Assembly: GCF_044324785.1 (NCBI RefSeq)
Contig: NZ_CP172129.1
DNA: 64,000 nucleotides
Source of the DNA: Escherichia coli
Lineage (GTDB): Bacteria > Pseudomonadota > Gammaproteobacteria > Enterobacterales > Enterobacteriaceae
Reading direction: 5' to 3' (one strand)
In this document: positions 62,501 through 64,000 of the stretch, one piece after another
Layout of the letters: every line of letters starts with the position of its first letter
Numbering within the stretch: position 1 is the stretch's first letter
Program-made: the position numbers

Positions 62501-64000
62501 CATATAGCGGTACCCTTCACGCCAGACATGGTTTAAGGCTCTGCATGCGGCGGCAATAATGTCCCGGCTGTCCTGTGTGGGTAATGAAAGCTTTTCCACA
62601 GCGGCATTGCTGTAACAGGGTTCAGGGGGATGTCCGTACAAATGTCGTCACCTGCCGGCAATACTGACGCTCCCCACGTAGTTTCTCTGCGGCCCGCTCT
62701 GCATACTGAACAACAGCCTGGTGCATGGCATCTTTGTCTGTGATTCGTTCACCAAAACTGCGACTATGTCAACGCCACGATGTTTGACCGTTATTTGCCA
62801 TTTTCATGCCCGCTAAATACTTTCGTTACTGATGCTGTCCGCTTTGCACCATTTCATCATCACTGATTGGCGTTGTGTTTTTGGTCAGCACTCCAGCTTT
62901 ACGTTTCTCTTTTAACCGGTAACTCTCTCCTTGTTCTTTTTGACGGACGCATTTTACGTTTGGGCTGGATGTAGTAACGCAGCATGGAACGTCCGCCCGT
63001 ATAACCCATTGCCTTAATCTCCGCGAAGATAACCTCGCTATTCCAGACATTCTCTGCCAGGCGCATGTCGATGTAATCCATAAACGGTTTCAGCTTAACC
63101 ATTTTGTGGCGGGTCTTTCTGGCTGGCGGTTCAGGGTATTTGAGGTAGCGTCTGACCGTCCGTTCAGAGCAACCAATCTGAGCCGCAATATCGACAATGT
63201 ACGCGCCCTGCTGGCGCATTTGCTTTATCATGTAAAAGTCCTCTCTGCTCAGCATGTTGATGTCCTTTCTGGTGTGAGAACCTTAAGGAAACAACATGTT
63301 GGGTGGAGCGGACAATCCAAATGGTGAATTACCGTCTTATATCACTGGCGCTGACACCTGTAGTTTGTATACACAATCCCTGGCATTGAAACACACATAT
63401 GAAGTGTACTTCGGATATGACCGTACGCTCAGGAAGTACGGCAGATTCCGTCAAAAATTACCTGTAAAGACAGACATCAGAAAAAACAGTGCTCGCCGCA
63501 GACCGGTGACCGGGCGAAGCCCGCGAACCGGCGAGGAAGCGCAATGTATCTGTAGTTACAGGGAGCAGGTACGCCCTGAAGCCCTTTCATAAAACGGTTG
63601 TGTGCGCTGTCCTTCTGGAATGATTTATCCACATATCCGGAGGCCCGATCCAGTAAACAGATCCATGAATGATCAACAAAGGATCCATTAAAGATCCCCA
63701 TATCGCTGCAAACCTTGTCACTCATGGGCCGGGACCACGATCACATAAGCTGTGGCATGTTACTGATAAACTGTAACATGCTAATGATAAGCTGTATTCA
63801 GTAATCCATATACTGAAGTAAGTTAATGACATAAACTATGGTCAGTATGCCAGACTCAGTTGTTAAATACAGGCTGCAGGTTTTTCTTCAGTCAGTTAGC
63901 GGAGTTCTGACACACGATTTTCTGTTTATTCTTTTACTGTCCACAGGCTGGAGGCTTTCTGGAAAACGAAAATTCAGACATCAAAAAACTGTTCGGCGAG

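Follow-up and report, generated by a model that had tools for sequence, protein, structure and literature searches.

The right-hand end of the DNA analysed here, a stretch of 64,000 nucleotides from an Escherichia coli contig (NZ_CP172129.1; the window), raises the question of what function a segment of about 700 bp without any long reading frame might have. A sequence-only reading had found no supported gene in positions 63296-64000, and had left undecided whether the segment could hold the promoter or operator of a gene that starts past the window, or be more IS debris. A nucleotide search of this region recovered clear homology, and with it an identity which that reading had missed, namely that of a RepFIB replication origin. 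Positions 63256-64000 (745 bases) show 100% identity to >1,200 plasmid records (E. coli IncF plasmids) and match ~3,900 plasmids in total, nearly all of which are IncF plasmids of Escherichia, Salmonella or Shigella. Several complete records stop exactly at the window end because their authors rotated them to begin at the replication gene; in NZ_CP033761.1 the annotation of a "RepB family plasmid replication initiator protein" starts at the base corresponding to window position 64001, and a second identical plasmid is typed as IncFIB by MOB-suite. Given that the initiator annotated directly after the window end is a Rep_3 protein, the segment represents the region upstream of the RepFIB repA gene. 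Hence, we hold with high confidence that 63256-64000 is the origin-proximal (left) half of a RepFIB (IncFIB, P307 clade) iteron replicon, with a truncated IS100-like end situated 268 bp upstream of its DnaA box. As the body of repA and the downstream iterons lie outside the window, we infer their presence from plasmids that are identical to it over its last 1331 bp; one of these, plasmid locus L001 (window coordinate = locus coordinate + 58255), supplied the sequence beyond the window. The plasmid itself is a large IncF virulence-type plasmid, with sitABCD located near the FIB origin.

The central features of the segment have already been published, and the RepFIB origin is a known system. The FIB replicon has been described as a rep gene placed between two sets of Rep-binding iterons, along with a DnaA site, and autonomous RepA-dependent replication as well as FIB incompatibility have been demonstrated for the replicons of pO157, F and P307 (Lloyd et al. 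2025, NAR, PMC11983097). From left to right, the segment contains the IS100-like end, a lineage-specific spacer, a module resembling a primosome-assembly site (pas-like module), the DnaA box, a GATC cluster, a G+C-rich spacer, the iterons, the repA leader, the ribosome-binding site (RBS) and a CTG start codon. A sensitive search additionally recovered a second group of ~670 plasmids, comprising Salmonella virulence plasmids, Citrobacter plasmids and some from E. coli, which are only ~70% identical to the window. The homology of this group spans exactly 63625-63852, i.e. from the DnaA box, which lies at the outer edge of the origin, through the last iteron. In the alignment with these relatives the DnaA box, five GATC sites, parts of the G+C-rich spacer, the iteron cores (ATAARCTGT), the TTTATTCT block, the RBS and the CTG are invariant, and the bases between them vary. 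The pO157 plasmid shows 97.7% identity to window positions 63615-64000, with its homology beginning only at 63615, and a different gene ends 22 bp ahead of that point. Since the pO157 FIB replicon is functional, the essential origin lies within about 63615-63851.

The left part of the segment has a different provenance. Positions 62933-63358 are 94.8% identical over 426 bp to an IS21-family element (IS100) of Yersinia pestis pCD1, and the start of istA adjoins this match. The left end of the element, on the minus strand at 62933..63356, comprises its terminal ~100 bp and the first ~107 codons of istA (ORF 62899-63255); it begins with TGTCAGCGCC on that strand and is truncated, with intact istA or istB absent. 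In the IS-free RepFIB plasmid NZ_CP021690 homology to the window begins exactly at 63357, which places the junction between IS100 and RepFIB at 63356/63357 (+/-2 bp), and this junction is common to about 1,050 plasmids. It is followed by a spacer (63357..63480) typical of E. coli-type RepFIB replicons, which IS-free E. coli FIB plasmids share at about 97% identity, and which is absent from pO157 and from Salmonella-type FIB. Most of 63357-63614 is in fact lineage-specific, and when 63380-63610 was searched in E. coli genomes it proved to be plasmid-borne in 2834 of the 2871 places where it occurs. That the whole segment might be inert IS debris or rearrangement junk could be argued from the IS100-like sequence at 63256-63356, from an IS1, a umuC pseudogene and an IS21-family remnant just upstream, and from plasmid lineages breaking off at different points within 63357-63614. 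However, the IS accounts for only 61 bp of the segment (63296-63356, the terminal 61 bp of the element), for which the suggestion of IS debris was apt, and the remainder is conserved as a block beside repA in ~3000 plasmids with an invariant DnaA box, GATC sites and iteron cores. Accordingly, we regard the debris explanation for the segment as a whole as very improbable.

The origin proper opens with a perfect consensus DnaA box, TTATCCACA, at 63625..63633 on the plus strand, the sole perfect box in 63200-64000; a DnaA-binding site is likewise drawn in the FIB replicon in Fig. 3 of Lloyd et al. 2025. It is followed by five GATC (Dam) sites in 63647..63696, beginning at 63647, 63660, 63671, 63682 and 63693, with a spacing of 13, 11, 11 and 11 bp, and by a sixth at 63739. 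Nowhere else in the 64-kb window are GATC sites so dense (6 per 100 bp, compared with 0.24 on average), and in the diverged relatives the five sites are retained while the intervening bases vary. By analogy with other origins, the cluster is probably the part of the origin that is unwound and placed under the control of methylation; as the region is only moderately A+T-rich (44% G+C), it is on this analogy that its role as an unwinding element rests. A G+C-rich spacer (63706..63742; 59.5% G+C) separates the GATC cluster from the iterons, and its GTCA..TG.GCC.GGA signature is kept in the diverged relatives.

Five origin iterons, the RepA-binding sites, occupy 63743..63851 on the minus strand: B (63743-63765), C (63764-63786), D (63785-63807), D' (63806-63828) and D'' (63829-63851). 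Their minus-strand consensus is TACTGACTACAGCTTAT, and they are spaced 21, 21, 21 and 23 bp apart, i.e. by about two helical turns. Their positions agree with the five upstream blocks that Lloyd et al. 2025 label as iterons B to D* (Supplementary Fig. S2). To recognize them by sequence we used a 23-nt weight matrix derived from ten iterons, four upstream (B, C, D and D'') and six downstream in L001. D', which was outside the training set, emerged as the next best site in 65.5 kb, with a score of 15.5 compared to 12.5 for the best non-iteron site, and in leave-one-out trials each of the ten iterons outscored all sites in a 127 kb background consisting of both window strands. A model built from the downstream iterons only also recovers the five upstream copies, with B, D and D'' scoring above the background maximum of 13.5, and D' (13.2) and C (9.0) below it. 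The second set of iterons (E-J) follows repA, with six copies at 6722-6990 in L001 (about window 64979-65244) in an orientation opposite to that of the upstream set. The upstream iterons (B, C, D, D' and D*) have been associated with the origin, and the downstream ones (E to J/K) with replication control and incompatibility, probably by means of Rep-mediated handcuffing (Lloyd et al. 2025).

The iteron array also clarifies what had drawn attention in the initial inspection. The AT-rich stretches reported there are genuine, with 63743-63851 having 34% G+C versus 53% in the whole window. The near-palindrome ACTGATAAACTGTAACATG, which had been placed at 63751..63769, actually lies at 63762-63780, is self-complementary at only 10 of its 19 bases and spans the junction of iterons B and C, which are direct repeats. 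The presence of CTG/CAG-containing AT-rich repeats at 63743-63851, together with the umuC pseudogene nearby, might have pointed to an SOS (LexA)-controlled promoter or operator for a downstream gene. Against this, the LexA-box scan that had been proposed found no CTGN10CAG in 63200-64000 and no match to the 20-mer consensus better than one with 8 mismatches, and the motifs in question are direct repeats that fit the RepFIB iteron matrix. A LexA operator is thus excluded by the scan of this interval, and the probability that we would assign to SOS control of the region is vanishingly small.

Between the last iteron and the initiator gene lies the repA promoter and leader region (63852..63949, plus strand), in which the TTTATTCT block (63924-63931) and TCCAC are conserved. 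Both strict and relaxed scans for sigma-70 consensus elements, the promoter scan envisaged in the earlier reading, returned no convincing match here, and a terminator scan likewise returned nothing convincing; weak promoter candidates are furnished by matches inside D'/D'' and by a conserved TATTCT at 63927-63932. Expression of rep is known to be weak and autoregulated through the binding of Rep to iterons (Lloyd et al. 2025). The leader ends in a GGAGG ribosome-binding site (63950..63954, plus strand), which is of the functional pO157/P307 type, and the P307-clade 29-mer GTCCACAGGCTGGAGGCTTTCTGGAAAAC, as given in Lloyd et al. 2025, is present without mismatch at 63939-63967. The first 14 codons of repA, the gene for the RepFIB initiator, extend from 63959 to 64000 on the plus strand, starting with the CTG at 63959-63961 and encoding M-ENENSDIKKLFGE. 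Annotation pipelines use instead a GTG at 64001, which is in frame with this CTG and 14 codons downstream of it. The CTG start was established in P307 by N-terminal sequencing (Spiers & Bergquist 1992, as cited by Lloyd et al. 2025), a CTG-to-CTC mutation abolishes replication, and most GenBank entries wrongly begin rep at the GTG 14 codons after the real start (Lloyd et al. 2025). The RepA N-terminus in Supplementary Fig. S2 of the latter study, MENENSDIKKLFGEVDKSSGE, is identical to that encoded by the window. The CTG, the RBS and the 14 codons are kept in all diverged FIB types, with the peptide (M)DKDNLDIKKLFEEV, and changes within these codons are mostly synonymous third-position substitutions (ATC/ATA/ATT, AAA/AAG and TTC/TTT, as well as CTG/TTG). 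This is the substitution pattern of a translated sequence, and it provides independent support for the CTG start. From this start the full RepA, as encoded in L001, is 339 aa long and contains the Pfam domains Rep3_N (WH1, E=6e-11) and Rep3_C (WH2). The initial verdict on the coding content therefore needs amendment: there is no long ORF in 63296-64000, but its last 42 bp belong to repA, initiated behind the GGAGG. Similarly, the proposal of a promoter or operator serving a gene beyond the window was near the mark in that the iteron region and leader carry the autoregulated control region of repA (Lloyd et al. 2025), but the gene begins 42 bp inside the window.

The least familiar part of the segment lies to the left of the DnaA box, where a module of ~100 bp (63481..63582, plus strand) was found by profile and alignment methods to be homologous to the ori-proximal primosome-assembly (n'-pas/ssiA) region of ColE1. 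It comprises the block GYGCTCGCCGCAG, a second block, GTRACCGRGC..GCGAACNGGYGAGGAAGCG, and, after a variable spacer with a fixed length of 22 nt, a third, AGCNNNTACGC; 17 distinct variants of the module have 33 invariant columns in common, distributed over the three blocks. The core is much more widely conserved than its flanks: plasmids with only 70% identity in the origin have it at 84-95% identity, and it is found in >5000 plasmids, of which 1,630 are from Klebsiella; it is often present two or three times and has no annotation in any of them. In every case (FIB types, IncR and F) it borders a Rep_3 iteron origin on the outside and is directed toward that origin. In IncR two inverted copies flank rep, and in F (NC_002483) one copy lies upstream of RepFIB repA, another 24 bp before the two ori2 DnaA boxes and a third, inverted, after repE/incC. 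A module profile constructed without ColE1 matches ColE1 (NC_001371) at 1305-1369 with E=6.5e-9 (nhmmer), and a broadened profile that includes the ColE1 variant aligns ColE1 1301-1399 across all three blocks with near-equal spacing. The matched ColE1 segment has the sense of RNA II (RNA I being at 645-749 on the opposite, minus strand) and is found some 110-200 nt downstream of ori, 25 nt beyond the dnaA box. Published accounts place the PriA-dependent primosome assembly site (n'-pas, ssiA) downstream of ori and close to a dnaA box, on the strand that Pol I extension exposes, and from this position we take ColE1 1305-1369 to be the mapped n'-pas. The n' sites have an AAGCGG motif in common, and a primosome assembly site near mini-F ori2 is said to have been described by Imber, Low and Ray in 1983. 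Taken on its sequence, 63481-63582 is a homologue of pas/ssiA and would most likely serve for primosome assembly of the PriA type. As the functional pO157 FIB replicon lacks the module, it is not essential.

The module could alternatively be some other origin-associated signal, such as a primase-only G site, a site for a host or plasmid protein yet to be named, or a recombination relic travelling with origins. This alternative draws on the conservation of the module in primary sequence, with its fixed 22-nt spacer, rather than in fold, on its being dispensable in pO157, on a conserved CTG on its minus strand (the reverse complement of CCGCAG), and on its orientation toward the origin, which is the reverse of that seen in ColE1. 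On the other hand, the significant homology is to a ColE1 segment at the very place described for n'-pas/ssiA, i.e. downstream of ori, near the dnaA box and on the displaced strand. With regard to the G-site idea in particular, neither blastn, Smith-Waterman comparisons with shuffles nor nhmmer detected significant similarity of the module to the region of R100 downstream of oriR, where the R100 G site lies, and a literature search on G-site terms returned no matches. We consider an origin-associated signal of another kind possible but rather unlikely, and favor the primosome-assembly interpretation. A blastn comparison of the module with a phage collection yielded chance matches only.

The same region contains the features that might suggest small proteins or a small RNA. 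The earlier statement that only short ORFs are present is borne out, with the longest encoding 98 aa (63296-63592) and none of four ORFs searched having a Pfam match; an 82-aa ORF is found on the minus strand (63477-63725), and one record annotates two ORFs of this kind as hypothetical proteins. Yet the 98-aa ORF crosses the junction of IS100 and RepFIB, and is thus a chimera and an artefact, and indels of 1-3 nt are seen among relatives inside these ORFs. As for an RNA, an imperfect hairpin of ~100 nt at 63461-63562 has a better fold than shuffled controls (z about -3). However, an Rfam search of 62800-64000 at E<=10 gave two chance matches only, and RNAalifold recovered no conserved fold for the module (-9.5 kcal/mol, zero covariation). 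Folded as single-stranded DNA, the module has z-scores mostly between +0.6 and -1.9, with local hairpins such as CGGGC-GAA-GCCCG. A covarying pair, CCX/YGG, which had been found by hand, was dropped, as it needs a register shift of one base. Functional small proteins or a small RNA are consequently highly improbable products of this stretch, which we continue to interpret as a primosome-assembly-like module at the edge of the RepFIB origin.

Comparison with known systems places the window squarely among the RepFIB replicons. Those of P307, F and pO157 (Saul et al. 1989; Spiers & Bergquist 1992; Gibbs et al. 1993; Lloyd et al. 2025) have the same five upstream iterons, DnaA site and CTG, and the same RepA N-terminus, MENENSDIKKLFGEV. 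The GGAGG is as in P307 and pO157, whereas F has a weaker RBS (GAAGG); the window differs from the known RepFIB replicons in the IS100-like end that abuts the replicon at 63356, and pO157 lacks everything to the left of 63615, including the pas-like module. The handcuffing model has also been applied to mini-F ori2/RepFIA (Lloyd et al. 2025). This replicon displays the same order of elements, with a pas-like element, DnaA box(es), an A+T-rich region with GATC, direct iterons, an autoregulated Rep_3 gene (repE) and a second iteron set behind that gene. Its iterons (incB and incC) are nevertheless unrelated in sequence, with a 19-bp repeat, TGTGACAAATTGCCCTCAG, as against the 21-bp repeat of FIB, and it further differs in having two DnaA boxes where RepFIB has one, few GATC sites, an ATG start and a second, inverted pas-like copy after incC. 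The oriR of P1 resembles RepFIB in having DnaA box(es), five short GATC-containing repeats about one helical turn apart and a G+C-rich stretch, followed by five iterons that overlap the repA promoter and a second set (incA) after repA, while the RepA of P1 comes from another family of initiators. For P1 a dependence on Dam is documented; RepFIB is not known to show one. No homology of P1 to the pas-like module was found in the blastn search of the phage collection. In ColE1/pMB1 the n'-pas (ssiA) likewise adjoins a dnaA box beside the origin, but its active strand reads away from ori and it loads the only replicative helicase, whereas the RepFIB module reads toward a DnaA/Rep-dependent origin and is dispensable.

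These observations are compatible with the following scheme for the action of the origin. RepA, a Rep_3 winged-helix initiator, is weakly translated from the CTG at 63959 and attaches as monomers to the five phased iterons at 63743-63851. With host DnaA at the 63625 box, RepA may then open the adjacent GATC-rich region, upon which DnaB would be loaded and theta replication would start. At the promoter-proximal repeats RepA represses its own gene, and handcuffing by RepA of the upstream iterons with the downstream set E-J would limit copy number and cause incompatibility. Dam methylation or SeqA may govern the timing of re-initiation. The pas-like module, rendered single-stranded after unwinding, may recruit PriA, so that one strand could be primed and a helicase loaded which travels back across the origin. 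Of this scheme, the RepA-binding sites, the DnaA site, the CTG start, the effect of the RBS, autoregulation and the role of the downstream iterons in incompatibility are established by the present analysis or by Lloyd et al. 2025. The layout that RepFIB has in common with mini-F ori2 (and with P1 oriR) is the basis on which we infer the opening and helicase-loading steps, and the opening at the GATC cluster, the role of Dam or SeqA, the position of the promoter and any activity of the pas-like module in RepFIB have the same standing.

The right end of the window can thus be recognized as a FIB origin and not junk, which closes a gap in the annotation: pipelines leave the RepFIB origin blank and start repA 14 codons late, at the GTG at 64001 rather than at the CTG at 63959. 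As its RBS is of the functional GGAGG type, the FIB replicon of this plasmid is probably active, which bears on the design of plasmid-curing and incompatibility strategies. The IS100/RepFIB junction at 63356/63357 serves as a lineage marker, which roughly one third of the FIB plasmids of the collection searched have in common. The less familiar point, which may merit a specialist's attention, is the spread of the pas-like module over ColE1, FIA, FIB and IncR with a fixed orientation, and in inverted pairs around the rep genes of mini-F and IncR. More speculatively, and with a likelihood that we would put as low, this module may be an ancient, unannotated origin accessory common to ColE1-type, RepFIA, RepFIB and IncR replicons, which might act as a PriA-dependent back-up for helicase loading or leading-strand priming, or as a restart site protecting the origin-proximal fork.

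Upstream of the iterons of the RepFIB replicon lies a module of about 100 bp that carries no annotation (window 63481-63582, plus strand) and consists of three conserved blocks with a spacer that is constant at 22 nt. More than 5000 plasmids carry this module, and it is common to ColE1 (NC_001371, 1301-1399, plus strand) and to the RepFIA, RepFIB and IncR replicons. Three copies are found in the F plasmid NC_002483 (38036-38136, minus; 48023-48119, plus; 49527-49624, minus) and two in the IncR locus L034 of a Klebsiella plasmid (25480-25579, plus; 27344-27442, minus). The mini-F and IncR rep genes are each flanked by an inverted pair of modules, and in every case the module is oriented toward the iteron origin. 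The module probably represents a PriA-type primosome assembly site (pas), and pO157 can do without it.

The Leclercia adecarboxylata chromosome LR590464.1 contains two RepFIB-like replicon copies 3.4 kb apart (7478-7572 and 10843-10937 of the locus extracted from it), each comprising a pas-like module and a rep gene whose product starts MENSEAQQ. IS1 copies sit between the two replicons and beside them, a layout that points to plasmid integration and a duplication mediated by IS1.

Left of the RepFIB module in the window, the IS remnant at 62826-63356 is composite: PGAP annotates an istA N-terminal fragment (62926-63255) joined to a short "AAA family ATPase", an istB-like C-terminal fragment (62826-62933). 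As the DNA-level match to Yersinia pestis IS100 is limited to 62933-63358, the istB-like piece may derive from a different IS21-family element. A frameshifted and truncated pseudogene of the DinB/UmuC family of translesion polymerases (62252-62765) lies between this remnant and an IS1; in L034, intact umuDC-like genes (21245-22947) adjoin the IncR replicon.

Closer to repA, iterons D' and D'' form an imperfect inverted repeat (63809-63847; ATACTGAAGTAAGTTAATG / CATAAACTATGGTCAGTAT; 74% complementary), with D' matching the iteron matrix weakly in either orientation. This repeat may serve as the RepA-dimer operator, in parallel with the operator of mini-F repE. A half-iteron-like segment, TTTACTGTCCACAG (63932-63953), is flanked immediately by a conserved TATTCT on one side and the repA ribosome-binding site on the other; it agrees at 12 positions with the first 14 nt of the downstream iteron F. 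Since its full-matrix score falls below the threshold, its participation in autoregulation is only speculative.

The pipeline-annotated repA start is an internal GTG in the E. coli type (window 64001, one base past its end, equivalent to 5746 of the matching NZ_CP033761.1 locus) and a TTG in the Salmonella type; in loci L005-L008 the called start is at 2178. The true start is a conserved CTG, 14 and 10 codons upstream in the respective types, and the deposited RepFIB RepA proteins therefore lack their N-terminus.
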